From the IMG/VR virus record IMGVR_UViG_3300020147_000001, positions 2,724 to 66,723 of that record: a stretch of 64,000 nt of DNA, one strand, 5' to 3'. Below are positions 4,469 through 64,000 of the stretch, piece after piece. The position numbers were made by a program, and so were the translations under genes. The notes under the pieces were generated by a model. It worked only from the letters and a program-made list of their open reading frames with translations, had not been told where the DNA came from and did no database searches. This DNA is from a virus. The number at the start of each line of letters is the position of its first letter. Within the stretch, counting starts at the first letter, position 1.

Positions 4469-4496
4469 CCAAAAACGCCTACATCGAAAGCAGACC

Positions 4497-4925
4497 ATGA
4501 CCGCAATCCACACCAGTCCCAAGTTCAAGCCCGGTTCCATCGGCGCCACTGTCCAAAGGCTCGGCGAAGCCAACCCCGGCATGAAAGCCGACGCCATGTA
4601 CCAAGCGGTACTCGCGGCTGGCCACAAGTGCGCGAAGAGCACCGTCTTACAGCTGCGGTCCGTGCTCGGCTACGTGGACAGCGCACGCAGCGCTGCGCAG
4701 ACGGCCGCTGTTGCCGCCAAGAAAGCCAAGCGCCGCACAAAGAAAGGCGTCAAGCGCGGCCCGTACAAAACCAGCAAGGCCAAGGCAGCGGAGCCGGCCA
4801 CCAATGGCCACACGACCGAGCCAGCGCTCCCAGGTGACTCCGGACGCGAGTTCCGTGCGCTGGTGTCGCGCATCGGCACGGACGCCGCTGACCGGATGCT
4901 CGCCGCCGTAAAGCAGGGGCGCTGA
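4497..4925 (+). CDS. basic, Lys-rich putative DNA-binding protein
   Basis: KKAKRRTKKGVKRGPYK stretch; ATG at 4497. Confidence 0.55.
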   Translation: MTAIHTSPKFKPGSIGATVQRLGEANPGMKADAMYQAVLAAGHKCAKSTVLQLRSVLGYVDSARSAAQTAAVAAKKAKRRTKKGVKRGPYKTSKAKAAEPATNGHTTEPALPGDSGREFRALVSRIGTDAADRMLAAVKQGR

Positions 4926-14661: not shown

Positions 14662-14737
14662 ACGTCAGTAGCTCAGTTGGTAGAGCACCGGATTCCAAAT
14701 CCGGCGGCCGGCGGTTCGAGTCCGCCCTGACGTGCCA
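14662..14737 (+). tRNA. tRNA-Trp (CCA)
   Basis: Full cloverleaf: acgtcag/ctgacgt acceptor stem, ccgga-TTCCAAA-tccgg anticodon arm, GGTTCGAGTCC T arm, encoded CCA. Confidence 0.95.
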
Positions 14738-44792: not shown

Positions 44793-44869
44793 TGGCTGTG
44801 GAGGCTGGATTCGAACCAGCGGACTCCGACTTAACAGGCCGGCGCTCGTACCGCACGAGCAACTCCACA
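44793..44869 (-). tRNA. tRNA-Asn (GUU)
   Basis: tgtggag/ctccaca acceptor stem, ccggc-CTGTTAA-gtcgg anticodon arm, GGTTCGAATCC T arm, G73-CCA; D-loop atypical. Confidence 0.85.
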
Positions 44870-51074: not shown

Positions 51075-52435
51075 GGTTTTGGCAGCTCTTTGTCGTCGGT
51101 TTTCGCTTCAACTTCGCCGTCGTTTTCGTGGCAATCGCACGCGCAACAGTGCTCGATCACATGCGGCTGACGCGACGCCAACCACGTGTCCAAACCCTTG
51201 TCGTACAGGCACCAGAGAAACCAAAGCAGCACTAGCACCGCCAAGAAGTCCTTTGATGCAAAATCCCAGAACGTCATTCCAGCTCCTTCGCGGCGATTAG
51301 GGGGCTTCAATGCTCCAAGCGCTCCGGCTCGTCGCTCTCTTCTTCCGGCCCCCTCGCGGCCCCCTCGGTGCCCCCTCGGGCTACCCTCTGCATGCTCTTG
51401 TTGATGTCCTTCTGAAACTCCGCCGCGCCGCGCTGAAGGAGTAGGGCGGCCGGAATCACCAAGTCATCCGGCCCTACAATCCGGTACCCCTGCGCATCCC
51501 GAATCGAACCATCCGGGCCCACCACGGGCTTCTTGGCGCGTTTTCGCGTCAGCAGCAGGTACAAAATCACGATGCCCACACCCCAGCCCACGAATGATTC
51601 CATCCTTGACACCTACCCTTCCCTCGCAAAGGCTGGCGCCAGCGGAGCGCCGCGCCAGTCATGATTGGTTACGCGTAGTTAGCGATCGAAGCTCGAATCG
51701 GTTTCACCCGGCCTTGGCGTCCTCAGCCGCTAAAGCTCGCTGTCGCCACGCCTCGGCTTGGGAGCGCCACAGGTCACAGTCGTCTGAGATTCGTTTGTGG
51801 TTGGCTGCAACCTGCCTCAGCGCCTCGACTTCATCGGCCAGCACTCGCAGGGCCTCTCGCTCATCCGGTCGAGCGATACGGGCTCTGATGCTCCTGGCAA
51901 ACGCCAATGCCTCGTCGACGGTCATTGGTCACTCTCTCCCAACCTTGGTCGGGGGTCAGCAGGGCATTTCCCGCGCTCATCGTCGACGTACTGCTTGCAG
52001 GCTCTGCAGCGCTTGAGCAGCGGGCCGAGTAAGAATAGCGGTGGCGGATCGTCCATCGGGTGCGGCACGTCATGCTCGCCTGGCCAAACGCTGCTCATGT
52101 GCCCTCGGGCTTGGGATGCTCGCTCAACCAGCGCTGATAGTTTGCCCATGCCGAGGGGAACCCTGGCTCGCGCAACACGTGCGCCAGTGCCTGCTCCCGC
52201 CCCTCGAACCACGCCAGCCTGGCCTTGAGCTCCTCGGTCTCGTCGACGATCGAGCAGGCGAAGCCGCAGTTCGAGCACAGCCCCTTGCCGGCCTTGAGCA
52301 CGTCTCGCTCGGCACAGAGGTCGATGGATGCTTCGACGTGCTCATCGCGGTCCTTGCGCAGCTCCGCGTTCTCCGCGCGCAGGCGCTGCACCTCGGCTGC
52401 CCATTCCTGAATCGTCAGTCCCCGTAGCGTGCTCA

Positions 52436-52783
52436 TCACGCGTACCTGATGTTCGGGTTGCGGTTGAAGCGGTCGGGACGCTTGAAGCCGCGGGCTTCTT
52501 GCTCGCGCCACCACACCTCGTCGGGGACCTCGTCAGCGAAGTCCTTGCTGGTGGGCTCGAGCTGCTTGGGCGGCTCGATAAAGTACTCGTACATGGCACG
52601 TGCGCGGCCCGGGTTGGGCCGCTGCCGGCGCCGGATGAGGCGCTCCTCGCGGAGCTTGTACGTGAGGATGTAGACGCCCGTCACGCCGACGCCGGCGGCC
52701 TCGGCGATCTCCGGACAGGTGAGGGGAGTGGGGGACGAACGGATCACTTCCAGGACCCGATGCTTGACGGTCTGCTCATTCAT
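52436..52783 (-). CDS. winged-HTH DNA-binding protein
   Basis: PLTCPEIAEAAGV..YKLREERLIRR; AAAGGACACGC leader. Confidence 0.7.
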   Translation of the reverse strand: MNEQTVKHRVLEVIRSSPTPLTCPEIAEAAGVGVTGVYILTYKLREERLIRRRQRPNPGRARAMYEYFIEPPKQLEPTSKDFADEVPDEVWWREQEARGFKRPDRFNRNPNIRYA

Positions 52784-52830
52784 CTTCGCGTGTCCTTTCT
52801 CGTGGTTACAGGTCGAAACTCGAAACAGCT

Positions 52831-53472
52831 TCAATCGAAAAAGCCGCCGCTCCCGCCGCTTCCGCCACCTGAGTCACTGCTGAAGTCACTGCTGGAGTCG
52901 CTGCCGCCCGAGCCCCAGTCACCGCTGGCACCGGCGCCGCCGAACTTGCCACCGCTGCCTGAAAAGTCAGTGCTGGTGGGAGCCGCTGGCGCGGCTGAAG
53001 GGCCGATGTGGAACACGTTCTGCGGCGACGAGCCGTCGCTGAACACGGCGTGCTTGCGGTTGTCGAGCTCCGGAATGTCCAGCGGGATGTGGGTGGTGGT
53101 GCCGGTCGGGTCGTCGATGCCGGGCATGTAGATGAGTGTGCGGCCCACGTCGTCCGACTTCACGAACGTGGCTTTGGATGGGTACGGCACGTCGATGACG
53201 TGCACGCGCCGGCGCTGTTCAGCGTCGACGAGCGTACGCAGGAGATCCGAATACTCGGCGCGCAGCGCGGTCAACTGGCTCTTCAGAAAGAAGCATCGCC
53301 CGAACTGCAGCCAGTGCGTCTCGATCATCGTCTCCCAGACGCGCATGCCGCGGCTGTAGCGATCCCTGAGCACCGAGCTCTCGTTGCGAAGCATCACCTC
53401 GTACTCCGGGCCGACACCGATCTGCTGGCCCCAGAACAGGGGGCACAGGCGTTGCTTGGTACGTTGAAACAT
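52831..53472 (-). CDS. hypothetical protein with a Gly/Ser tail
   Basis: C-terminal FSGSGGKFGGAGASGDW. Confidence 0.55.
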   Translation of the reverse strand: MFQRTKQRLCPLFWGQQIGVGPEYEVMLRNESSVLRDRYSRGMRVWETMIETHWLQFGRCFFLKSQLTALRAEYSDLLRTLVDAEQRRRVHVIDVPYPSKATFVKSDDVGRTLIYMPGIDDPTGTTTHIPLDIPELDNRKHAVFSDGSSPQNVFHIGPSAAPAAPTSTDFSGSGGKFGGAGASGDWGSGGSDSSSDFSSDSGGGSGGSGGFFD

Positions 53473-55031
53473 GGAAGTCCTTGCGTGGATGTAGGGGTAG
53501 AAACTCGAAACTACATCAAGCAGCTTTTCAGCGCGGCCACGGTCACAGCGATGACCGTGGCCCAAAAGAAAAGGACGACGCCAAGCGCGTCCCAGCCCTT
53601 GAAAGGCCCGCGTTCGATACGATCGTCGTCGTCGTTCACGCGCTCTCCAGTGGAGGAATAGGTTTGAGATGCCATGCCCTGCAGATGTCGCAGCGCTTGC
53701 ACTCGAAGTTGTTTTCGCCAAGCTCAGCAGCGAGCTTTTGGCGGTTCTCGGAGAAGAGCGCGTCATACGCGGTCGCGTAGCGAAGCTCTTGGCACGGGGT
53801 TTGTTGGTCGCGAGTTGACATAACAAAGATTATCGGCTGAACGGTGGCGGGTTGTCGTGCTCGAATCGGTACACGTCGTTCCGAGCGTGGATGGCCTCGT
53901 CGGTCGTGCTGGCTGACAGCATCGCGTCCAAGTGCGGCCACACCTCCATCAGCCACAGCGCGATGTCGAGTGCTACGGCCTGCTCTGTCGTCCAGGTGTC
54001 GTTTGCACGCCGCAACGTACCAACCACCCTCTTCGCTTCGTCGAGCGTCATCGGCCCATCACCATGAAGGCTCCGAACACCAACGCGATGAGGCAGGTCC
54101 ACATAAGCAGCCTGTCGTCCGACGCATTCTGTGCGCGGCGCGCGTCCATCTCCGCGTTCCAGCGCTCGGCGGTCCACCCCTCAGCCTTGAGAGCTGCCCA
54201 CTGCTCGGTCGTCGGCACATCACCACGCTTCATGTTGTCTTCGATGCTCATGTTCCCTCCGGTTTCGGGTTCTCGGCTAGCCAGTCAGCCAAGCGAAGCG
54301 CTGGGCCGTGGTCGGCGTAGCAGCCAATCGTCAACACCTCGCGCGCGCCCTCCTCGAACTTCGCGTACCACTCCAGCTTGGCCTCTCGCTGGGTCGCGCC
54401 TTCTTGGAGCTGCCGCATGACGTCAACGCAGGCGTCGTTGCTCTCGCGCAGCTCGGCGTTCTGCGCCGTGAGCTCGACGACCGCAGCCGCGCTCTTCTGC
54501 AGCTCTTCGCCAAGCAATGCATTTGCCGTGCGCAGGTCAGCCAGCTCCTTCTTCATCCTGAGCATGTGCGGCAGCCCCATCAACCGTTGGTTCTCCGCGC
54601 GCAGGCGATGCACCTCGGCATCGGCTTTGGCGAGCAAGGTCTTTATATACTCCACTGAGCGCTCGAGGCTCATCGGCGACCCCTTGCCTGCTCCGCCTTC
54701 TCGGTCGCGCGCAGCTCTTCCCACTCGCGCCTGAGCTCGTAGTTCTGCGCGTGCTTTTGCACTTCCTCTTCGGAAAGCGAAACGCCGAACTTGGTCTTGA
54801 GCCACAGCGTGAACCGATTAGCCATTCAGTCCTCCTCTTCGTGTTTGGAGAAGTCAACGCCTTCTGCTTTTGCAAACGCGCAAATCATCAGCGTGAGCGC
54901 CACGATCCCTTCAAGCAGGCCGACCGCCACCCAGTCGCGCACGCCGGCGATGCCCATCATGTTGCAAATGAGACCGCAGCACACAACGCCTTGGAGCCAG
55001 AGCGCGCCCTGCACCGCTGCCCGCCACAGGT

Positions 55032-55406
55032 TCATGAACGCACACTTTCTTTCAGTTCGCCCAACGCGAGCAGCTCAGCCACTTTGTCGAGGTCGTTGTG
55101 CGGGCCCAGCACGAGCTGGCCCTTGTAGGTGAAGTGCTCGCGGCACTCGTGTTCTTCGAAAGCCAAAAACGCTTTGAACGCACACTGCACGAGCTCACTC
55201 GCGGTCATGTGCGGAGAAAGCAGATGTTTGCCGCCCTTCATGATGCGCGATCCGCGCAGCGGAGGCGGAAACGGAATCGTCGCGATCACCTGCAAGTACC
55301 AGTGCGTTGTGCCCGGCGCATCGCTCACGGGAGCGCAGATGAGCTCGTAGCCGTGCTTGTACTTGATGTTCGCGAGCACGCTCGCGATCTCACCGACGCT
55401 CATCAT
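55032..55406 (-). CDS. conserved-looking phage protein of unknown function
   Basis: LSPHMTASELVQCAFKA...EEHECREHFTYKG...GPH. Confidence 0.7.
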   Translation of the reverse strand: MMSVGEIASVLANIKYKHGYELICAPVSDAPGTTHWYLQVIATIPFPPPLRGSRIMKGGKHLLSPHMTASELVQCAFKAFLAFEEHECREHFTYKGQLVLGPHNDLDKVAELLALGELKESVRS

Positions 55407-56970
55407 GGGATCACCAAAAACCGACGCATGTTGGAGCCCTTCTGCGCGGCCTCCTCGTCAAGGTACACTGACCCACTCACCCACTTGGCCCCAGGGACCA
55501 CGGGGTGATCGGGGTCGACGAGCACCCACTCGACCGAGTGCATCGGAGATGACCTTGCAAGCACGACAGGCTGGCACACATACCCAGAATCACGGGTCTT
55601 CGTCAGGAACGTGTGCCAGCGCTTGGCCTCGAGCCTGTCGCAAAACACAGCAACCTGCTCCACATAACCCTTCTTCTGAAGAGCGTCTGGCTTGTAGAAC
55701 GCGTAGTACCGCGGCTCTTCCTTGCCCCCAAGCTCGCACACCTCGCACTTGGGGATCTGAAAGAGCACGGTCATGAGCCGCTTGCACTTCGGGCAAGAAG
55801 TCATCGCAAACGCCCTTCCCGCTGCATGACAGCATAACGCGCGCGCAGCGGCGCAGGCTGGAGATCCGCCAGCGCAAGACCAAACTGCTTGGCCATGGCC
55901 ACGACAACATCCATGGACCCCTGCATCCGAAACAGTGAATCGAGGAGTGTCGTAGCAAGGTCTTTGCCACGGCCATCTCTGATGAGCGCCTGGCTGGCCT
56001 CGACGCTCACGTGATGCGCAACAGCAAACGCGTCCAAGACGCGCTCGCGAAACGCGTCTTCCAGCGCGCGCTTGGTTTCGGTCACAACATCGAAATCTTT
56101 TTGGTCAAGCATCGGTCCGTCTCCTTCTGTCGCTGTAGCCATCGACGCAGCAAGGTCGCCGCTTCGACTCGGATGGGCTTGCCGCCGATGGCGCGCATGT
56201 AGGTTGCGTATCCGATGCCCGAATGCAGCCAGGGCTTCGAATAGTAGAGCTCGGACGGCATCGCCTCGATCTCATCAGGGGTCAGCACCTCCCAGGCCTT
56301 GGCCGGCTTCACAAAACGCCTCCGAGCCGCCCGAGCATCGCGAAAAAGCCGACAATGCCTGCGACGAACGCAAACCAGGCTTTGCCCGCCTGCGATGTGT
56401 CAGAAAACTTCGACACGTCGTGCACGCCCCATCCGATAACGACAAGCGAAAGCAAAAGCACTCCCATCTCTAGGTTCATGTGTCCTCGTCTTCCTCGTCT
56501 TCCTCGTCAAACAATCGACACACCCTACGCAGCTCGTGCACGAACATCCACTCGGCACCCGCAAACATCGCGGCATACACGAACCCACCAACTTCATTGG
56601 CGATGAGTGGCCCGGCCATCCCTACCGCAATCCAAAACGCTGTTTTCACGGGCGCGACCCTTTCTCTAAACAACCGTGGTGCACGAAGCCGTCATCCCGG
56701 ACCGCGCCTCGTGCACCACGCCCTACAACCCTACTCTTCGGCCTTGGGGGGTTTGACCGGCATAGGGTCGAGCTGAATATCCTGCGCCTCCGACATGCGT
56801 TTGATCTGCTCCAGCGCCTTGTGCATACGCTGCGTCGCAAGCGAAATCAAAAGCGCGTAGTCCTCTGCGCTCGCGTTCACAAGGCAGCCTGCGCCCTCAA
56901 AGAGCTGTCGTATCTTCTTGTCTCGAAAGTCAGCCACGTTCGCCCCTCTTTCCCGTTGCTCGTGTTCTAG

Positions 56971-57339
56971 CTAACGATGCATCCACGCACGCGCCGCGTC
57001 GTGACGCTCGTCCCAGGCGCGTTGTTCCTGCAAGTCCTCTTTGCTGCGCGCGCCCTGCAAAGGCTCTCGGTGGTAGGAGTTGCGCCATTGCGCCGCGCGG
57101 TCGTACGAGCCTTGTCGCTCACGCAGGTGGTCGTACTCCATGTCGTCGCCGCCACGACGGTAGAACGACTCGTCGTAAGGGCCTCTGCTGCCACCCCTGC
57201 CAAAGCCGCTCGCCCAATCGCGAGCGCCAGCAAACCCAGCGCCGCCTCCAAAAGCAGAGTAAGCCACAAACGCCAACGCGATGATCACCACAACGGCAAT
57301 CATGCGAAGCACTCCGCCGAGCTTCGACTTCTCTTCCAT
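56971..57339 (-). CDS. membrane-anchored hypothetical protein
   Basis: N-terminal TM helix; AAAGGACACGCTC leader. Confidence 0.65.
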   Translation of the reverse strand: MEEKSKLGGVLRMIAVVVIIALAFVAYSAFGGGAGFAGARDWASGFGRGGSRGPYDESFYRRGGDDMEYDHLRERQGSYDRAAQWRNSYHREPLQGARSKEDLQEQRAWDERHDAARAWMHR

Positions 57340-57551
57340 GAGCGTGTCCTTTCGACAGAACCGCGGATCAGAAAGAAGCCGACCGACTCACTCGATGACG
57401 GTACAGCTCGCCCCCATTGGACGGGTTGCCCGACCCGATCGGCTTCTGTCTGACTCGCGGTCTAACGCCCCGCCCCGTGGTTTAGCGTGTCGGGGGCAAA
57501 GCTAGTTCAGGCTTTCTATCACAGGCCGATCGGCTGTCCAGTCGAGAAAGC

Positions 57552-57648
57552 AAAAATGTGTTCGTGTCTCCAGGTCTAGCTGTTTGAGCATCTTGCTCCG
57601 GAAGGACACGCTAAGTCTAACGACCGGGATGCCCGAGACACGAACACG
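57552..57648 (-). ncRNA. predicted ~97-nt small RNA antisense to the repeated leader motifs
   Basis: 14-bp terminal stem (57557-57570/57635-57648) followed by U5; promoter placed immediately upstream. Confidence 0.55.
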
Positions 57649-57654
57649 TCGGGA

Positions 57655-57683
57655 AACCTACCACCTACGTTGTGATCTCGCCA
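57655..57683 (-). promoter_or_regulatory. putative extended -10 promoter for the sRNA
   Basis: TGGCGA-N17-TAGGTT with TGn; predicted start about 57648-57649. Confidence 0.45.
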
Positions 57684-57704
57684 CGATTTCGTGCGCATAG
57701 CAGT

Positions 57705-57733
57705 TTGCAAAAGCGGTTACGTCAGTGCATGGT
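57705..57733 (+). promoter_or_regulatory. putative promoter for the ro60 operon
   Basis: TTGCAA-N17-CATGGT. Confidence 0.35.
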
Positions 57734-57775
57734 GGCCGACGTGACGCATTTGCAATTCGGCAGGTGGTCACGTGT

Positions 57776-57856
57776 GCTCCGCGGCAGCGCCTCATGAGTG
57801 CATCACACGATCACACGTTTTAGGTCCTACTTGAACGTGTAACGCTGCCGCGGGGC
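57776..57856 (+). ncRNA. structured 5' leader (or additional small RNA) upstream of ro60
   Basis: gctccgcggcagcg/cgctgccgcggggc 14-bp stem enclosing an acacgtt/aacgtgt hairpin. Confidence 0.45.
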
Positions 57857-57878
57857 GCTGCTTCTTCACTGTACCGCC

Positions 57879-59576
57879 ATGGACAAGACCCTGTTCAACA
57901 CGCGCACGGGCCACGCGCCCGTTGCCGACACCAAGAACCTCGCCGGCGGCAAAGCTTACTCGCGCGACCCACGCGAAGCGCTCGCGCAGCTCGCGGTCAC
58001 AGGCTGCTTCGGCGACACGTACTACGCCTCCGCGCACGAACAGCTCGACGAGATCAAGGCCGTGCTCGCGCTGTGCTCTCCTGACTTCGTCGCCAAGTGC
58101 GCGATCTACGCGCGCGAGCGCGCCAACATGAAGGACATGCCCGCGTTCTTGCTGGCGCACCTTACGGCGCGCTGCGGCGCAGAAGCTGTCGCACAAGCCA
58201 TAGCGTTCCCGGCACTACGCGCCTTCCACGCAGCGTTTCCGCGCGTCATCGACAACGGCACCATGCTGCGGAAGTTCGTGCAGGTGGTGCGCTCGGGCGC
58301 GGTCGGTCGCAAGAGCTTCGGCACAAGCGTCCGCAATCGGATCCGCACATGGTTGCTCGCCCAGTCAGACTGGCGGCTCTTCAAAGACTCGGTCGGTGAC
58401 CAGCCGTCGCTCGCGGACGTGATCAAGATGGTGCGCCCGAACCCTGTACGCGGCTCCTCGCGCTGGGCGCTGCACGAGTACATCCTTGGCAAGAAGCTCA
58501 CCGAGGAGCACAACCTCGTGCTTCCACGCAGCGTGCTGGAGTACGAATGCTTCAAGCAGTTACAGCTGCAGGGCAAGGCCGAAGTCTTGGCTGTTCCCGA
58601 TGTCGACTTCCGCATGCTCGACAGCCTGAAGCTGAGCGACGCGCAGTGGAAGGAGGTCTTTCGCCGCGCGCCGTGGTCCATGACACGACAGAACCTCCTC
58701 ACCGCAGAACGACACGGCGTGCTCAAAGACCCGGAGATGGTCAACATCATCGCCGAGCGGCTGCGTAGCCCGACACTCGTGCGTAAGTCGCGTGACTTTC
58801 CCTACACGCTCCTGAGCGCATTCATCGCTGCGCGCGACGCGGGCTTGCCGAATGCGATCACCAACGCCCTGCAAGACGCGATGGAGATCGCGACCGAGAA
58901 GGTGCCAACGTTCGGCGCCGGCACAGTGATCTGCGTCGACGTGTCCAGCTCCATGCAGATGACGCCCGTGACCGGCGGACGCGGCAAACCAACCAAGGTG
59001 AGCTGCGTCGAGGCGGCGGCGCTCATCGCGGCTACGCTCGTCCGCAAGAACCCAGACGCGCTGCTCCTGCCATTCAGCGACCGACTGAACCTGGAGTACA
59101 AGGTCAACTCGCGCGACTCGGTCATGACGATCGCGCAGCAAATCTGCGCCCTGCCCTCAGGCGGGACGGACTGCTCGCTGCCGCTGTGGCACCTCAACGG
59201 ACGCAACGCGCGCCACTGGGCAGCTGTAGGGATCCGTCAGATTGTGATGATCAGCGACAATGAGTCCTGGTCGCAGCCGGCGAAATTCGCGAGCTACGGC
59301 ACCCATGAATTCTACCGCCGACAAGGAACGCCCTTGGCGGAAGCGTGGGCAGAAACCAAAAAACGCAACCGCGACGCCAAGCTCATCTGCATCGACCTGC
59401 AGCCCGCGATCACGACGCAGGTCAAAACGGCAAGCGATCAGCTCAACGTCGGTGGCTTCACCGACGACGTTTGGCGCGTCGTACAAAGCTTTATCGAGAG
59501 AGGGTCGACTTCGTGGGTCGATGAGATCGAACGTATCGATCTGCACGCGCTTGACGCGCCCGCGCACGAAGCCTAA
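57879..59576 (+). CDS. rsr: Ro60/Rsr RNA-binding protein (TROVE + vWA)
   Basis: NLAGGKAY, LAQLAVTGCFGDTYYAS, YARERANMKDMP; vWA MIDAS DVSSSM, GGTDCSLP, ISDNESW, LICIDL, VGGFTD. Confidence 0.95.
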   Translation: MDKTLFNTRTGHAPVADTKNLAGGKAYSRDPREALAQLAVTGCFGDTYYASAHEQLDEIKAVLALCSPDFVAKCAIYARERANMKDMPAFLLAHLTARCGAEAVAQAIAFPALRAFHAAFPRVIDNGTMLRKFVQVVRSGAVGRKSFGTSVRNRIRTWLLAQSDWRLFKDSVGDQPSLADVIKMVRPNPVRGSSRWALHEYILGKKLTEEHNLVLPRSVLEYECFKQLQLQGKAEVLAVPDVDFRMLDSLKLSDAQWKEVFRRAPWSMTRQNLLTAERHGVLKDPEMVNIIAERLRSPTLVRKSRDFPYTLLSAFIAARDAGLPNAITNALQDAMEIATEKVPTFGAGTVICVDVSSSMQMTPVTGGRGKPTKVSCVEAAALIAATLVRKNPDALLLPFSDRLNLEYKVNSRDSVMTIAQQICALPSGGTDCSLPLWHLNGRNARHWAAVGIRQIVMISDNESWSQPAKFASYGTHEFYRRQGTPLAEAWAETKKRNRDAKLICIDLQPAITTQVKTASDQLNVGGFTDDVWRVVQSFIERGSTSWVDEIERIDLHALDAPAHEA

Positions 59577-59584
59577 AAAAGAAC

Positions 59585-59657
59585 CGTGTCTGAATGCAGT
59601 GCGGGATTACATCGGATTTGAACCCAAAAGGATCTCGCGCGCTCCCGGTCGGGCACG
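59585..59657 (+). ncRNA. Y RNA-like unit 1 (minimal, no tRNA body)
   Basis: Terminal stem cgtgtctga/tcgggcacg; shared GAATGCAG, TTACATC and CCGGT motifs. Confidence 0.7.
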
Positions 59658-59665
59658 CAATTTTT

Positions 59666-59811
59666 GAGCTCGAATGCAGAAGGCATTACATCTTCGCCAA
59701 AGATCGGTCTTCGCAAGAAGAACGCGGGTTCGAATCCCGCCGTGCTCCGTAGGGGCGCGTGGGCGAGCGGCCAAAGCCACGAAAACGATGTCTTCGACTC
59801 CGGTTGAGCTC
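59666..59811 (+). ncRNA. Y RNA-like (YrlA-type) unit 2, with a permuted class II tRNA body
   Basis: gagctcga/ttgagctc stem; long variable arm, GGTTCGAATCC T arm, looped acceptor stem, GAGCGGCCAAAG D arm. Confidence 0.8.
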
Positions 59812-59821
59812 GCTACTTTCA

Positions 59822-59959
59822 TGCTGCTGAATGCAGAGGGGCATTACATCGAATTGTAATCGAGAGGTCGTCGGTTCGAGTCCGACCGGCTCCCGCGAGG
59901 GAGCCGTAGCTCAGGTGGTAGAGCGCTAAAGTATGTCCTTCGATCACCGGTCAGTGGCG
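59822..59959 (+). ncRNA. Y RNA-like (YrlA-type) unit 3, with a permuted tRNA-Thr(UGU)-like body
   Basis: tgctgctga/tcagtggcg stem; ATTGTAA loop, T arm, acceptor stem closed by GCGA, TAGCTCAGGTGGTAGAGC D arm. Confidence 0.85.
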
Positions 59960-60015
59960 CTAACGTTTTCACGTCCGTTCGGCAGTTGAAACCTCGTGCT
60001 TCATGTCACACCCCC

Positions 60016-60065
60016 GTCGTGCGGAGCTGTCTGCAGACCACCCTTTGTGGGCAGCTCCGCGCGAC
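60016..60065 (+). other. 22-bp RNA hairpin inside the Y RNA array
   Basis: Uninterrupted pairing including several G-U pairs on the + strand. Confidence 0.65.
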
Positions 60066-60079
60066 ACCCTTCCGAGTTT

Positions 60080-60222
60080 GGTCACGAATGCAGCAAGGAT
60101 TACATCGCTTTGGGAGCCGGATGTCGTGGGTTCGAATCCCACACCCCTGGCCTACACCTGACAGGGGTTAGCTCAGCCTGGATAGAGCGCCGTAACGTAT
60201 CTTTGCGATTCCGGTCGTGACC
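60080..60222 (+). ncRNA. Y RNA-like (YrlA-type) unit 4, with a permuted tRNA-Pro(UGG)-like body
   Basis: ggtcacga/tcgtgacc stem; TTTGGGA loop, T arm, acccctg/caggggt acceptor stem, TAGCTCAGCCTGGATAGAGC D arm. Confidence 0.85.
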
Positions 60223-60235
60223 GTTGTTTTTGTAG

Positions 60236-60700
60236 ATGAAGGCGTCTTTTGTAACCGGCAGCCGTTGGTGGCCCCTCACCGCACCTGACCGTCACCCGAT
60301 CCACGACGCATTGCTTGGCACCGAGCTCCTCATCGTGGGCGACTGCCGCACTGGCGTCGATGCGATCGCGCTCGACTGGGCGCTCGCGAACGACTGCATC
60401 GTGCGCGTGTACTGCGCGTCCCTGGCGCGCTTCGAAGCGTTGCGCGTGACCCCCGGCATACACGTCGAGCTCACTGTGGCGCTTGAGCTTGCGCGCGCGT
60501 GGGACACGCGAAAGGGCAAAGTCGCGGGCCCCATCCGCAACCGCCGCATGGCGCACGAGGCCAAGCGCGTGGAAGCTGAAACAGGGTGCAAGGTGGACTG
60601 CTACGCGTTTCCGCTTTCGGGCTCACGCGGAACACATGACTGCATCCGTGCCATGCGCGAGGCCGGATTCACCCCCAACGTTTACAAACACGGAGACTGA
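60236..60700 (+). CDS. SLOG-superfamily (DUF2493/YspA-like) protein
   Basis: VTGSR, GDCRTGVDAIA, AGPIRNRRM, AFP..GSRGT motifs. Confidence 0.85.
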   Translation: MKASFVTGSRWWPLTAPDRHPIHDALLGTELLIVGDCRTGVDAIALDWALANDCIVRVYCASLARFEALRVTPGIHVELTVALELARAWDTRKGKVAGPIRNRRMAHEAKRVEAETGCKVDCYAFPLSGSRGTHDCIRAMREAGFTPNVYKHGD

Positions 60701-60702
60701 CC

Positions 60703-60960
60703 ATGCCGAAAGGGCACACCAAGTACACCAAATACGAATCCGAGCTGCTCAAGGCCAACAAGCAGCTGCGCAAGGCGCTTGCGCGCATGGAACGCGCCGC
60801 CACCGAGCTCGAGGCACGCCCCGACCCCGTTGTCACCCCGAAACCGGTGAAGAAGGCTCAAGCTCCGGGTCGTCAGCTTCGCCTTCCGGGTACTGTCGGT
60901 AGCCGCAAGGCGGCCAAAGCCCCTGCGAAGCCTCGGAAATCGCGCGCACAGCGTAGTTGA
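60703..60960 (+). CDS. small basic protein
   Basis: GGAG SD; Lys/Arg-rich. Confidence 0.6.
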   Translation: MPKGHTKYTKYESELLKANKQLRKALARMERAATELEARPDPVVTPKPVKKAQAPGRQLRLPGTVGSRKAAKAPAKPRKSRAQRS

Positions 60961-61101: not shown

Positions 61102-61782
61102 CTAGGGCTTCCGACATGCGCTACAGGGTACCGCGTAGCCAGCTTCATTGGGGAGCTCGATGAGATGCGACACAGGGTAGTCCATCGCCACGAGGTGGTT
61201 GTACTTCGTGACCGACATGGTCTCACAACGCTCGCAGTACGCGGGGGCTTCGGGTGCCCGGTAGTTTGGTGTCGGAGCGCCCAGGGCCGCGTGCGCGCGC
61301 GCAACGGCTTCAGGGCTGATAGGGACATGCCATGGCTCGGGTGACTCAGCTTGCCTGGTCGCCCCACGCATCACGTCGGGCGTGATCGACAAGGCGCCGG
61401 CGAAGAACCCGCAAGCGTTGCCTGTGCCGATGAGCACGGGGGCCCCCATGCGCGACACGACCCGCCGGGTGAGATCGAGACCCTCGATGATGATCGCGTC
61501 GGCGCCGTAGGGCGCGGTCGCTTGCGGGAAGTGGATGGCTTGCTCGTTCAGCCAGAGCTCTCTGCAGATGTCGTAGACAAAAGCGCATTCCACGCGCTGG
61601 TAGTTTGCGTCGGCGACTTCCTCGTGCGGCCCACATGACAGGCCGACGTAGGTGCGCACGCGGTCCACAACAGGACCTGCGGGGGTGGGCTGGGTTTTGT
61701 CGAGCTTCAGGCCGACGCGGTTCGCGAACGCTTGGAGCTCGTCGAGGAGCTTATTGAACGCTTGGAGGTCTGCTTGGTCCAT
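61102..61782 (-). CDS. hypothetical protein with a tail-protein-like domain and a C-terminal Zn finger
   Basis: YQRV..AF, IHFPQATAPYG, FFAGAL; CERC...CSAC. Confidence 0.6.
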   Translation of the reverse strand: MDQADLQAFNKLLDELQAFANRVGLKLDKTQPTPAGPVVDRVRTYVGLSCGPHEEVADANYQRVECAFVYDICRELWLNEQAIHFPQATAPYGADAIIIEGLDLTRRVVSRMGAPVLIGTGNACGFFAGALSITPDVMRGATRQAESPEPWHVPISPEAVARAHAALGAPTPNYRAPEAPAYCERCETMSVTKYNHLVAMDYPVSHLIELPNEAGYAVPCSACRKP

Positions 61783-62871
61783 AGTGCCCTTTCAAGGAGG
61801 TGTGACCGCGAATGCGATGCCTAGGGCAATGAGAATGCCCAAAATCCCCGCCAGTACAATCGCAGCACGCTCACCGTTTTGCATAGACCCCGATGTAGGC
61901 AAGAATGCCTTCCATAAGGCCGATGAGATGGTTGAACTGCGCGTGCTTGGCTGCGCTCGCTGCGCGGTAGGCGTGGCCGTCGTCGTTCTTCACGTCGAGC
62001 GCATCGATCACCGCGACGCAGCGCTGCTTGTACTCCTGCAAGCCATCTTCGAGCGCCTTCGCGTGCGTGTAGCTGATGGGCAGCTTGAACGCGTAGCGCG
62101 TGTAGTTCGCGCCGTCCTGCGTCACCGACTCCACATTGACCGGCTCGGCGTCATGCCAACTCACATGGACTTTGCGGGACCCGGACTCGGTGGGTCGCTC
62201 GGCTTCGTCGGGCATGGGGGCTCCTTGGGGTGCAGGGGCTTCGTTTTGGCGGAACGACTTTTTGCGAAGTCGTCCATGACTTCTTGTCTGCGTTTTTCGT
62301 CTTCGGTCATGAACTTTGGCGCGCATTCACCGCAAGGGCCATCTTGCCACTGGACCGTCTTGGTGGGCGACGGGCAACGGCACTGTGCGATAACGCGCCC
62401 ACACGGGCGACACTTGATGACGTAGTGCATCACGATGCCTCGTACCCTCCGCCCTCGCGAGAGATGATCTTCTGCGCTTTGCGCTGCGCCGCACGCTGCT
62501 GTGCTTGGTGCACGCGGCGCTGGTGCCGATTCATCTTCCGCAGCGCGTTGATCGGCGCGAGCGGACTGTCTTTGTTGTTGTGGCACTGCGGGCACATCGC
62601 CGGCGGCACCGGGTTTGTGTCTTTGAAGCCGCAGTCCGCGCACACGCGCAACGGCTTCAGCATGTTCTTCGGCGCATAAGCCTTGGAATCATTGTAGTGC
62701 ATCACTCGTCCTTTTTCGGATCGACCCACTCACCCGTGGTGAGGTGGTCGATCAGCGGCTGCTGCAGCGGCTCGGGAAGGAGCGAGACGTGGAACACGAG
62801 GCCTTCAGCCATGGCCTTCAGTTTGGCGTCGAGCAGCTCCGCGTACACCCCCTTGGGCTTTTCGTCTTCCA

Positions 62872-63330
62872 TCATCTCCCCGAGCAGCAAGCGTTTTGGA
62901 TCGCCGCACCGGCGATAAACATCGTGATGCCCCAAAAGAGCGGGCTCTTGTACCAGCGACGTTCGCCGGCGAGCTCGGCGCGCGCCGCCCGCGCATCCGC
63001 AGCTGACAGCTCTACTTGTTCCTGCAAGTGAGCATTGGAAGACTGCAAACTAGACACGGCCGAGCGGAGCGAGGCCGTTTCTTTTTCGCGATGCGTATCG
63101 AGCATCCGGAACTTGTTCACCTGCAGCTCGAGCTCCGGGTAGACGCGCAGCTTGTAGAGCAGCTCGGGGACAGCCTCTTCCGAAAACCAGGTGCCCTTGC
63201 GCCCTTCCCACTTCACGCCCACGACGCACGTGTCGTCCGGCGTCGCGAGCTCGAGCTTCGGGCAGGCGCGCGCGTGCGTCGGCAGAAGGCTAAAAACCAA
63301 GGCTAGTGAAAGCAGCAGAGACTTCGTCAT
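62872..63330 (-). CDS. putative spanin-like protein
   Basis: Signal peptide followed by Cys, coiled coil, C-terminal TM helix. Confidence 0.45.
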   Translation of the reverse strand: MTKSLLLSLALVFSLLPTHARACPKLELATPDDTCVVGVKWEGRKGTWFSEEAVPELLYKLRVYPELELQVNKFRMLDTHREKETASLRSAVSSLQSSNAHLQEQVELSAADARAARAELAGERRWYKSPLFWGITMFIAGAAIQNACCSGR

Positions 63331-63637
63331 CCGTCATGGTCCTCAGCTTGTCGAGCGCCGCTCGCGACCCGAGCTCGACCGCGCGCTCTTGCGACGCACG
63401 AATGTCTTTTTGGAAGAGGTCGATCACGTCAGCATGCGCGTTGGCGTTCTGCATGAGCTCGGCGACGAGGGCGCCGTCACGCGCGATCCGCTCGCGGAGC
63501 TTTTGCACTTCGATGGCGTTCTGGAGCGTGGCCACCTCGTTTCGCTTCGAGCGCCAGATGTAGAACGCGCCGATGAGCGTGCCGATCCCAAGAAACCAGC
63601 CCCAGGGCAGCTTCCAAAGCCAGTAGAGGAACTTCAT
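63290..63637 (-). CDS. putative i-spanin-like membrane protein
   Basis: N-terminal TM helix with a coiled coil; overlaps the downstream gene. Confidence 0.45.
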   Translation of the reverse strand: MKFLYWLWKLPWGWFLGIGTLIGAFYIWRSKRNEVATLQNAIEVQKLRERIARDGALVAELMQNANAHADVIDLFQKDIRASQERAVELGSRAALDKLRTMTDDEVSAAFTSLGF

Positions 63638-64000
63638 GAGGCGAAGATCTTACTGCACCAAACGCAAAACCAGCGGTTTTCGCGCAGGGTCTTCATGGGT
63701 TTGCCACACACGCGACAAGTAGGTGCTTCAGTCATGGGTAGTACCTGTAGGGGTGGTACGACAGCCAGTGAGCCCATCTGTAGGCTGCGAACTCAAACAG
63801 AGCTGCAAACACCGGCACGCCAACGAACAGCCCGAGTATCCACCAAAGAAGATTGCCGATGGCGCCCGACTTGGGCTTGTCGTCCTTCTTCGGCGGACAG
63901 GGTGGATTGACTACCTGGTACGATACGCGGTTGCCCACGACGCATCGTACCAGGCGGCTGGCCTTTTTGCTTTCTAGGCAGCCTAGATGTTGCCCGTCCA

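Follow-up and report, generated by a model that had tools for sequence, protein, structure and literature searches.

A Ro60-like gene and four Y RNA units in a viral genome

The virus record IMGVR_UViG_3300020147_000001 (66,723 bp, with direct terminal repeats) encodes a Ro60/Rsr-like protein followed by four Y RNA units, which we analyzed in a stretch covering 64 kb of the record (hereafter, the window). The gene, on the plus strand at 57879–59576, encodes 565 amino acids with Pfam matches to vWA_Ro60 (E = 2.9e-13) and TROVE (E = 3.2e-5), and also matches phrog_850, an RNA-binding protein in PHROGs (E = 7.4e-24). Downstream, on the same strand, lie unit 1 (59585–59665), unit 2 (59666–59811), unit 3 (59823–59958) and unit 4 (60080–60222). 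The first of these starts 9 nucleotides (nt) from the stop of the Ro60 open reading frame (ORF) at 59576, within the distance of up to about 4 kb from Ro60/Rsr that is expected of YrlA RNAs, whose presence next to Ro60 Chen et al. (2014, PMC4201824) report for over 250 bacteria and phages. We conclude that units 2–4 are very probably YrlA-type RNAs, each comprising a whole, rotated cloverleaf that includes an anticodon arm; an arm of this kind is conserved across phage and bacterial Ro loci.

Every unit starts with CGAATGCAG or CTGAATGCAG, followed by TTACATC, and ends with a complementary 3' strand; all four carry a Ro motif (GNCGAAN0-1G class) and a YUAY element (TTAC), aligned to positions 5–23 of the YrlA model. 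An earlier note on this DNA had pointed out that TTACATC is followed in each unit by 2 nt and a 7-nt loop, as can be read directly from the sequence. In units 2–4, the loop is succeeded by the 3' stem strand, a variable region, the T arm, a loop-closed acceptor stem, the D arm, nucleotide 26 and three further nucleotides. The YrlA order (T arm, loop-closed acceptor stem, D arm) and the pairing of tRNA positions 27–29 with 41–43 are thus found in units 2–4, and are lacking in unit 1.

In unit 4, TTACATC (60100–60106) precedes GC at tRNA positions 30–31 (60107–60108), the loop TTTGGGA (60109–60115) and positions 39–43 (60116–60120), after which come a variable (V) loop (60121–60125), the T arm (60126–60142), the acceptor 3' strand (60143–60149), joined by a loop (60150–60161) to the 5' strand (60162–60168), the D arm (60171–60188) and positions 27–29 (60190–60192). 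The anticodon stem, CCG+GC against GCCGG, pairs at 5 of 5 positions. Unit 2 has Ro helix strands at 59666–59692 and 59783–59811, the former ending in TTACATC (59686–59692), followed by TT at positions 30–31 (59693–59694), the loop CGCCAAA (59695–59701), positions 39–43 (59702–59706), a long variable arm (59707–59723), the T arm (59724–59740), the loop-closed acceptor (59741–59759), the D arm (59762–59778) and positions 27–29 (59780–59782); its stem, CGA+TT against GATCG, also pairs at 5 of 5 positions, one of them T-G. Unit 3 consists of TTACATC (59844–59850), GA, the loop ATTGTAA (59853–59859), the 3' stem strand (59860–59864), V loop (59865–59869), T arm (59870–59886), acceptor hairpin (59887–59906), D arm (59909–59924) and positions 27–29 (59926–59928). 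Here, CTA+GA against TCGAG leaves one A-G mismatch, and the stem becomes a perfect 5 bp if C59850 of the TTACATC motif substitutes for A59928, which would move the branch point of the Ro helix to 28/29. The element order and the three stems had been given correctly in the earlier note (perfect in unit 4, one G-U in unit 2, one mismatch in unit 3); its placement of the Ro handle at 29/30 in each unit is right in that the handle branches from the anticodon stem, although in unit 3 the branch may lie at 28/29.

Unit 1 is short and YrlB-like. Its TTACATC (59607–59613) is followed by GG and the loop ATTTGAA, and a T run stands at its end. No T, D or acceptor arm was found in it, our parser detecting no T arm, and the apical hairpin (59614–59624) has a GG/CC stem of only 2 bp, next to which three consecutive C leave a loop of 7 or 8 nt (8 in the minimum free energy (MFE) fold, z = −2.12). 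The claim that each Y RNA displays an anticodon loop accordingly stands for the cloverleaves of units 2–4 and is weak for unit 1. Another short Y RNA, at 2373–2451 of phage locus L006, forms an anticodon-like hairpin, CGA CTCGTAA TCG, and a second small hairpin, and lacks T, D and acceptor arms; the Ro protein of this phage was the best match of our first IMG/VR search (42% identity over the best segment).

Rotation of units 2–4 yields complete tRNA cloverleaves

We rotated the units by joining the 5' acceptor strand, up to position 28 or 29, to the remaining anticodon arm through the 3' acceptor strand, omitting the Ro helix. ARAGORN then called a tRNA for each of units 2–4, namely tRNA-Trp(cca) of 88 nt for unit 2, tRNA-Thr(tgt) of 75 nt for unit 3 and tRNA-Pro(tgg) of 75 nt for unit 4, bearing out the proposal that they are complete rotated cloverleaves. 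Across the wider family described below, a tRNA was called, with its anticodon placed in the hairpin, in 45 of 47 rotated units, all preselected by a cloverleaf-like parser, as against 4 of 46 units in native order.

In native order, 59585–60222 contained no tRNA according to ARAGORN and nothing that Rfam called at its own thresholds. The Rfam tRNA model (RF00005) reached 22.8, 19.5 and 18.1 bits in the region against a cut-off of 29; with their rotated order and loop-closed acceptor, the units are not the contiguous, free-ended cloverleaf of that family. Under relaxed settings, the YrlA model (RF02553) matched unit 4 (49.9 bits, E = 5.2e-10) and unit 3 (39.5 bits, E = 5.5e-7), both below the 69-bit gathering cut-off, and matched neither unit 1 nor, up to E = 10, unit 2. 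Both alignments contain a 15-nt insertion exactly at the anticodon hairpin, and the shortfall in score of the window units goes with this insertion and their longer loops. A bacterial YrlA with the same kind of insertion (locus L086, in which GCG-CTTCTAA-CGC forms a 14-nt insertion) still scores 85.3 bits, above threshold; the best-scoring member (L085, 92.5 bits) is without one.

An anticodon-like arm recurs across Ro loci

We located related units through features independent of the hairpin, that is, a T arm, a directly adjoining loop-closed acceptor helix, U8 with a D arm, and an upstream YUAY, and then tested each for a 5-bp stem built from the 2–3 nt before the loop and the 2–3 nt after the D arm, scanning loops of 3–11 nt and variable loops of 3–6 nt. 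The automated set drew on phage and bacterial Ro loci from 161 sources (816,565 bases). With 42 T arms of ordinary tRNAs skipped, it held 137 units, 78 of them unique; 2 in normal order were removed, and clustering at 90% identity gave 67 clusters. The automatic rule for ordinary tRNAs also lost a few true units, for example, L001 1314 and L077 876.

A perfect 5/5 stem enclosing a 7-nt loop was present in 41 of the 67 clusters, and other loop lengths gave 3–14 each. Shuffled sequences yielded a mean of 3.3, and none of 300 shuffles reached 41, so the arm does not arise by chance. A hand-curated set analyzed earlier contained 39 perfect stems with a 7-nt loop among 68 units, after 13 had been dropped (2 inside the Ro coding sequence, 4 ordinary tRNAs, 3 without a Ro motif, 2 that used the T arm of the previous unit, and 2 in normal order). 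Two filters were abandoned, namely a first 'ordinary tRNA' filter, which wrongly flagged 30 units, Ro 5' strands often pairing with the acceptor 3' strand, and a duplex-energy filter for the Ro helix, which did not separate real units from shuffles and which the window's own units failed.

The loop itself is tRNA-like. Among the 46 clusters in which four or more of the five stem pairs form, position 32 is C in 31 and T in 8, position 33 is T in 38, position 37 is A in 35 and G in 9, and position 38 is A in 38. This frame, Y32-U33-NNN-R37, is that of real anticodon loops. The homologs retain U33 (38/46) and R37 (44/46) while the anticodon varies, and their loops, for which 7 nt is the dominant length, are not random; 7-nt loop, U33 and R37 together mark the hairpin, family-wide, as a mimic of an anticodon arm. 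G33, the base found in unit 2, occurs in 0 of the 46 units tabulated. Loops with C32-G33 recur, as CGCCAAA in unit 2 and as CGGCTAA in three units of normal order (L011, L014 and L015, near 4290).

The nucleotides after the D arm are needed for the stem in 23 of the 41 perfect cases, where local pairing alone reaches at most 3 bp. In a structure-blind MAFFT alignment of 46 units (A2), the two local pairs form in 90.6% and the junction pairs 27–43 and 28–42 in 86.7%, compared with 34–44% for slid controls, with 12 double changes at 27–43 and 24 at 28–42.

The hairpin as such is already known, and the anticodon-arm reading is a re-reading or variant of the known YrlA design. Chen et al. (2014, PMC4201824), in whose main text 'anticodon' occurs three times, saw the hairpin and labelled it a variable arm (V), the V loop being said there to start with YUAY. 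The statement in the earlier note that YrlA RNAs are described without an anticodon arm is correct insofar as the consensus lacks the loop, Rfam accommodates it as an insertion of 14–15 nt, and Wang et al. (2018, bioRxiv 312249) portray S. Typhimurium YrlA as lacking an anticodon loop; it overlooks that the hairpin had been seen under another name. In the literature that we searched, we did not find the hairpin read as an anticodon arm, and Fig. S1 of Chen et al. may already draw it. Should the published label (PMC4201824) be taken literally, the hairpin, which stands directly upstream of the T arm region, would be the variable arm of the tRNA-like module and its likeness to an anticodon arm would be incidental. 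We regard this as very improbable, given that a separate V loop of 4–5 nt, often AGGTC, intervenes between the hairpin 3' strand and the T arm across the family, and that unit 2 possesses a 17-nt variable arm of its own besides the hairpin. Moreover, the last 2–3 nt on the 3' side of the hairpin find their partners just beyond the D arm, as tRNA positions 41–43 do in 27–29, and both the Y32-U33-NNN-R37 loop and the site at which ARAGORN placed the anticodon in the 45 of 47 rotated units point the same way.

Several observations count against reading the hairpin as an anticodon arm. Single-sequence MFE folds show no anticodon hairpin in units 2–4, the tRNA-like fold lying above the minimum by 2.3 (unit 4), 4.9 (unit 3) and 10.1 (unit 2) kcal/mol; such gaps are unremarkable for tRNA-like RNAs, and the case is weakest for unit 2. 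Unit 4 has T33 and G37 in its loop, and unit 3 has T33 and A37; neither unit 2, with G33, nor unit 3, with A32, has a canonical loop. The rows of A2 were chosen for pairing, which makes the covariation partly circular for the two helices of the anticodon stem, and of the two tests the one on loop length is unbiased. In several units, unit 3 among them, TC from the Ro motif can take over the pairing from the nucleotides that follow the D arm, so that a plain local hairpin is an alternative fold. Finally, 21 of the 67 clusters have no arm with a 7-nt loop at 4 or more of 5 pairs, although unit 2 of the window is counted there only because its long variable arm exceeded the range scanned, and the arm is absent from the best Rfam member (L085) and, as it is described, from S. 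Typhimurium YrlA. A YrlA can thus do without the arm.

The anticodon triplet changes rapidly within a conserved frame

The triplets most often found in the 46 clusters are GTT (10), TGT (6), TGG (4) and TTG (3); 27 of the 46 end in T, and A34 appears in only 3. They look like real anticodons. We compared 11 disjoint pairs of units that are at least 75% identical elsewhere and found that positions 34–36 differ at 13 of 33 sites, as against 5 of 44 for the other four loop positions (Fisher P = 0.006) and 112 of 983 for the remaining sites (Fisher P = 5e-5), that is, the triplet differs about 3.5 times as often as other sites between close relatives. Across all 16 pairs sharing at least 80% identity, which are not independent of one another, the corresponding figures were 22 of 48 for the triplet and 156 of 1466 elsewhere. 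For example, CTGCTAA in L056 corresponds to GTTCCAA in L059, with 3 differences at 92 other sites, and L041, L044 and L046 each have a different triplet at both of two orthologous units. The anticodons within a locus were distinct at the loci inspected, which, by our estimate, is expected by chance from anticodon frequencies, and we make no claim from it.

Body and anticodon agree weakly. When the anticodon arm was removed and each unit compared with 143 real tRNAs, the nearest was of the same isotype for 7 of 44 units (3.2 expected, P = 0.036). The body of unit 4 is nearest to tRNA-Pro, matching its TGG, and carries a C1-G72 pair, as is typical of tRNA-Pro in bacteria. That of unit 2 is nearest to tRNA-Ser, a class II tRNA, and its loop reads CCA (Trp) with G33; GCT (Ser) triplets, in turn, sit on class I bodies.

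Unrotated forms, encoded CCA and relation to tRNA

Large, low-GC phages (L008–L015), as well as L066 (1880–2015), carry beside the Ro gene a tRNA in normal order with a Ro-type helix inside the anticodon stem. Such a unit runs from the 5' acceptor strand through the D arm and positions 27–29 into a loop-closed Ro-type helix, then completes the anticodon arm and continues with V loop, T arm and 3' acceptor strand. Some of these units end in a discriminator and CCA, such as L011 4207–4330, the MFE fold of which has all five helices (among them acceptor stem, Ro hairpin, 5-bp/7-nt hairpin and T arm) and the CCA tail. The Rfam tRNA model scores 47.0 bits at L011 4207–4327 and 45.9 bits at 4486–4606, with an insertion of 62–63 nt in the anticodon arm; ARAGORN misses both. 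In light of these forms, the armed YrlA and the tRNA whose anticodon stem holds a Ro helix represent a single design in two circular permutations, and thus a natural pair of this kind.

Some rotated units likewise retain a CCA. It is encoded at positions 74–76, directly after the 3' acceptor strand and inside the acceptor 'loop', in 11 of the 68 hand-curated units, where about 1 is expected by chance, and in none of the window's units, unit 4 having G-CCT. Acceptor helices measure 7–8 bp, and units 2 and 3 close an 8-bp helix with loops of 3 and 4 nt, respectively.

These features bear on the main rival to the mimic function discussed below, namely that the RNAs are split or permuted tRNAs that can be charged. 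RNase P would cut at the 5' acceptor strand, the 3' end would be trimmed and receive CCA, the Ro helix and the core would hold the pieces together, and the product would be aminoacylated by an anticodon-reading synthetase and act in translation or as a mimic of charged tRNA, or merely be protected from exonucleases. The excess of encoded CCA, acceptor helices of 7–8 bp and the normal-order forms with discriminator and CCA speak for this model, and most of the triplets seen belong to tRNAs whose synthetases read the anticodon. Further support comes from M. smegmatis YrlA, which, by the account of Chen et al. (PMC4201824), RNase P cuts in vitro and which exists in vivo as two Rsr-bound halves, one of them CCA-tailed; the CTTCTAA loop is found in the primer for that RNA. 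In the window, though, no unit has CCA, and the tight loops on the 8-bp helices of units 2 and 3 should make them poor RNase P substrates. Among the phage proteins there is no match to RtcB or to a CCA-adding enzyme, although host enzymes could serve, and a helix at 28–30 should clash with the decoding sites of the ribosome. Isotypes of body and anticodon also often disagree, as in the 7 of 44 agreement, the class II body with CCA in unit 2, and the GCT triplets on class I bodies. A chargeable split tRNA is, in our estimate, unlikely. For cleavage and ligation to a normal tRNA, a possibility raised in the earlier note, we found nothing in support, RtcB matches being lacking in the phage.

Alternatively, the arm could be an evolutionary left-over, in which case YrlA would have formed from tandem or rearranged tRNA genes and the arm, having no function itself, would be a remnant in decay. 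Such an origin would be compatible with the similarity of the YrlA pattern to tandem tRNAs (noted in the methods of Chen et al. 2014, PMC4201824), with the 21 of 67 clusters and the well-studied YrlAs that have no arm, and with the fast change of the triplet. Parts of units 3 and 4, in addition, closely resemble tRNA-like contigs from other organisms, as would suit a recent derivation: soil contigs match the hairpin, V loop and T arm of unit 4 (60106–60140), two of them (X8 record 18 and X5 record 13) with 3 differences in 35 nt, and in two the flank beyond 60106 reads as a D arm. Decay, however, should affect the whole loop and its length, yet variation is confined to 34–36, with positions 32, 33, 37 and 38 and the length of 7 nt retained. 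The stems retain their pairing through many compensatory changes among units whose Ro proteins are 21–45% identical to that of the window, and position 34 avoids A, as in working tRNAs. The conserved loop frame and compensatory stems make a vestige quite unlikely.

A possible role as a tRNA mimic

What the tRNA-like domain does in bacterial Y RNAs has been an open question since 2014, and Wang et al. (2018, bioRxiv 312249) refer to the partner of this domain in YrlA as an unknown factor. We tentatively favor, without rating it as probable, a function in which each RNA serves as a Ro-tethered mimic of a particular tRNA and acts as bait, competitor or reporter for host factors that read anticodons. 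Ro60 would bind the terminal helix formed by the two ends of the RNA. In the anticodon stem, the 39–43 strand is continuous and the 5' strand is split into the 2–3 nt before the loop and the 2–3 nt after the D arm, so that a three-way junction forms where the Ro helix leaves the stem, at 28/29 or 29/30; both halves of the stem could then stack on the continuous 39–43 strand, with the Ro helix protruding. The module would thereby offer a tRNA elbow, together with an anticodon loop that looks real, to anticodon-reading proteins, the likeliest of which would be host tRNA-targeting nucleases or modifiers that are baited, competed for or reported on, and several units per phage would cover several anticodons.

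A bait, competitor or sensor fits best in view of the conserved frame, the fast triplet, the presence of several triplets per locus and the bias to triplets of real tRNAs. Hughes (2020, PMC7790460) has proposed that YrlA's tRNA-like domain could competitively inhibit an anticodon nuclease, and the PARIS nuclease AriB is reported to target tRNA-Lys(UUU) and tRNA-Thr(UGU), as well as tRNA-Asn(GUU) (PMC12409363). Three considerations temper this interpretation. The commonest triplets, GUU and UGU, are AriB targets, which is a coincidence of lists and no test; a stoichiometric decoy is a weak defense against a catalytic nuclease; and the rapid change of the triplet is as compatible with relaxed constraint as with an arms race. 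Both the decoy idea and that of acceptor opening are worth testing given the fast turnover of anticodons and the encoded CCA in 11 of 68 units. Going further, the RNAs of phage and bacterial Ro60 systems might be mimics with exchangeable anticodons, occurring in two circular permutations, with the triplet under diversifying selection because every mimic would bait, block or report on one anticodon-specific host factor, for example a defense nuclease of the PARIS, PrrC or colicin-E5 kind, and with the arrays constituting a panel of specificities for a phage; we consider this more elaborate scenario speculative and somewhat doubtful.

If many YrlAs hold an anticodon-arm mimic with a fast triplet in a conserved frame, their partner is probably an anticodon-reading protein, and the search for it would narrow to nucleases, synthetases and modification enzymes. 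This would link Ro60 and Y RNAs to tRNA as a battleground of immunity between phages and bacteria.

Genomic context, transcription and relatives

Besides the Y RNA units, the window contains two ordinary tRNAs, Trp(cca) at 14662 and Asn(gtt) at 44793. Nine neighboring ORFs (60236–60700, 56977–57453, 61652–62425, 63191–63910, 61102–61782 on the minus strand, 52328–53131, 53844–54320, 55357–55776 and 56223–56606) have no Pfam match, and a tenth, 60703–60960, was compared with PHROGs only. Apart from the Ro gene, a single PHROG match was obtained, to 'GTP-binding domain' for the ORF at 60236–60700, and the neighboring ORFs scanned with Pfam and PHROGs offered no RNA-repair context. A long, nearly perfect hairpin on the plus strand between units 3 and 4 (60016–60065) lacks a Ro motif and may not belong to the Y RNAs; the fold of the interval that contains it (59959–60079) has a z-score of −4.65, and none of 200 shuffles was as stable by MFE.

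A scan of 57500–60800 found no promoter-like site, and its sole terminator-like site, on the minus strand, is the T arm of unit 2. T runs at 59660–59665, 59966–59969 and 60227–60231 lie within a few bases 3' of the basal helices of units 1, 3 and 4; they look like 3' ends of these units and went unscored by the simple terminator scan. Seven soil DNA runs contain the stretch wholly or partly, and it may have come from two of these. Runs X3, X5 and X6 and an RNA run (X8) differ from the window once, T>C at 59664, and given this single difference across the four runs, strain variation is uninformative on the anticodons. A soil metatranscriptome contig of 151 nt is identical to 59841–59991, that is, most of unit 3 and 33 nt beyond. 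As evidence of transcription this is no more than a weak hint, since DNA can be present in libraries of this type and the contig shows neither strand nor ends.

In a blastn search of GenBank phages, 17 records matched, all via unit 3, including Xanthomonas phages, the Caulobacter phages CcrColossus and CcrPW, and a Mycobacterium prophage. Three records were inspected. Those of CcrColossus and the Mycobacterium prophage have a Ro/TROVE gene adjoined by arrays of units like these; in the third, from a Xanthomonas phage, genes beside the array are annotated as hypothetical proteins only. Loops in the related arrays include CTTGTAA, CTGTTAA, ATCTCAA and ATCTGGA. Some units in deposited phage records are annotated as tRNA-Thr or tRNA-Gln (L001 1490–1557, L002 1465–1543, L003 1150–1217), the annotated pieces being the Ro 5' strand, hairpin, T arm and 3' acceptor strand, and similar sub-threshold matches to the Rfam tRNA model occur in the window. 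Annotations of this kind inflate phage tRNA counts.

The IMG/VR loci came from searches with the Ro protein and two Ro alignments (10, 68 and 48 loci in overlapping sets), to which 4 loci on bacterial contigs were added. Of 151 genomes sampled from one phylum, 19 had YrlA-model matches at E ≤ 1e-5, 2 of these exceeding the cut-off, and many of the weak matches among the sampled genomes are tandem tRNAs. At the bacterial locus L086, an ordinary tRNA-Pro(tgg) at 1680–1754 follows, after 40 nt, the above-threshold YrlA with the CTTCTAA hairpin.

Comparison with known systems

The closest counterparts of the window units are the YrlA RNAs of RF02553, known from S. Typhimurium and M. smegmatis, which also lie beside Ro60/Rsr, carry a CGAAUGC-type Ro motif and YUAY, occur as several Y RNAs per locus, and have T arm, acceptor and D arm in the same order with positions 27–29 paired to 41–43. 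M. smegmatis YrlA appears to share the kind of loop as well, since CTTCTAA is contained in a primer printed in the methods of Chen et al. (2014). Unlike the RF02553 consensus, which is without an anticodon arm, the window units form one from an insertion of 14–15 nt and score below the cut-off. D. radiodurans Yrn1 is similarly Ro-bound, and Chen et al. (2014, PMC4201824) drew for it a potential 5-bp anticodon arm. In that RNA, by contrast, the loop has 6 nt and the arm stands between T-like and D-like elements in another orientation, and the authors judged its origin to be independent.

Among phages, Thermus phage phiLo (PMC12135203) likewise encodes Ro60 with adjacent RNAs, Yrl1 and Yrl2, which were shown to bind Ro60 and the host PNPase; these RNAs are described as stem-bulge-stem, and the terms 'anticodon', 'tRNA-like' and 'YrlA' are absent from the main text of that paper. 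The tRNAs of phage T5 for Lys, Thr and Asn, which counter PARIS AriB (PMC12409363, PMC11464382), offer a functional parallel in that a phage supplies a specific anticodon loop in a conflict over tRNA. They are, in these accounts, ordinary working replacements for cleaved host tRNAs, whereas the window RNAs are acceptor-closed, unlikely to decode and predicted to be Ro-bound.

Rotated order is also known from the permuted tRNA genes of the red alga Cyanidioschyzon merolae and from two-piece permuted tmRNA, in which the 3' half comes first and a short linker joins the acceptor ends, and which are processed to normal or working two-piece molecules. The window units differ from both in that they are broken within the anticodon stem, and the break is filled by a predicted protein-binding helix.

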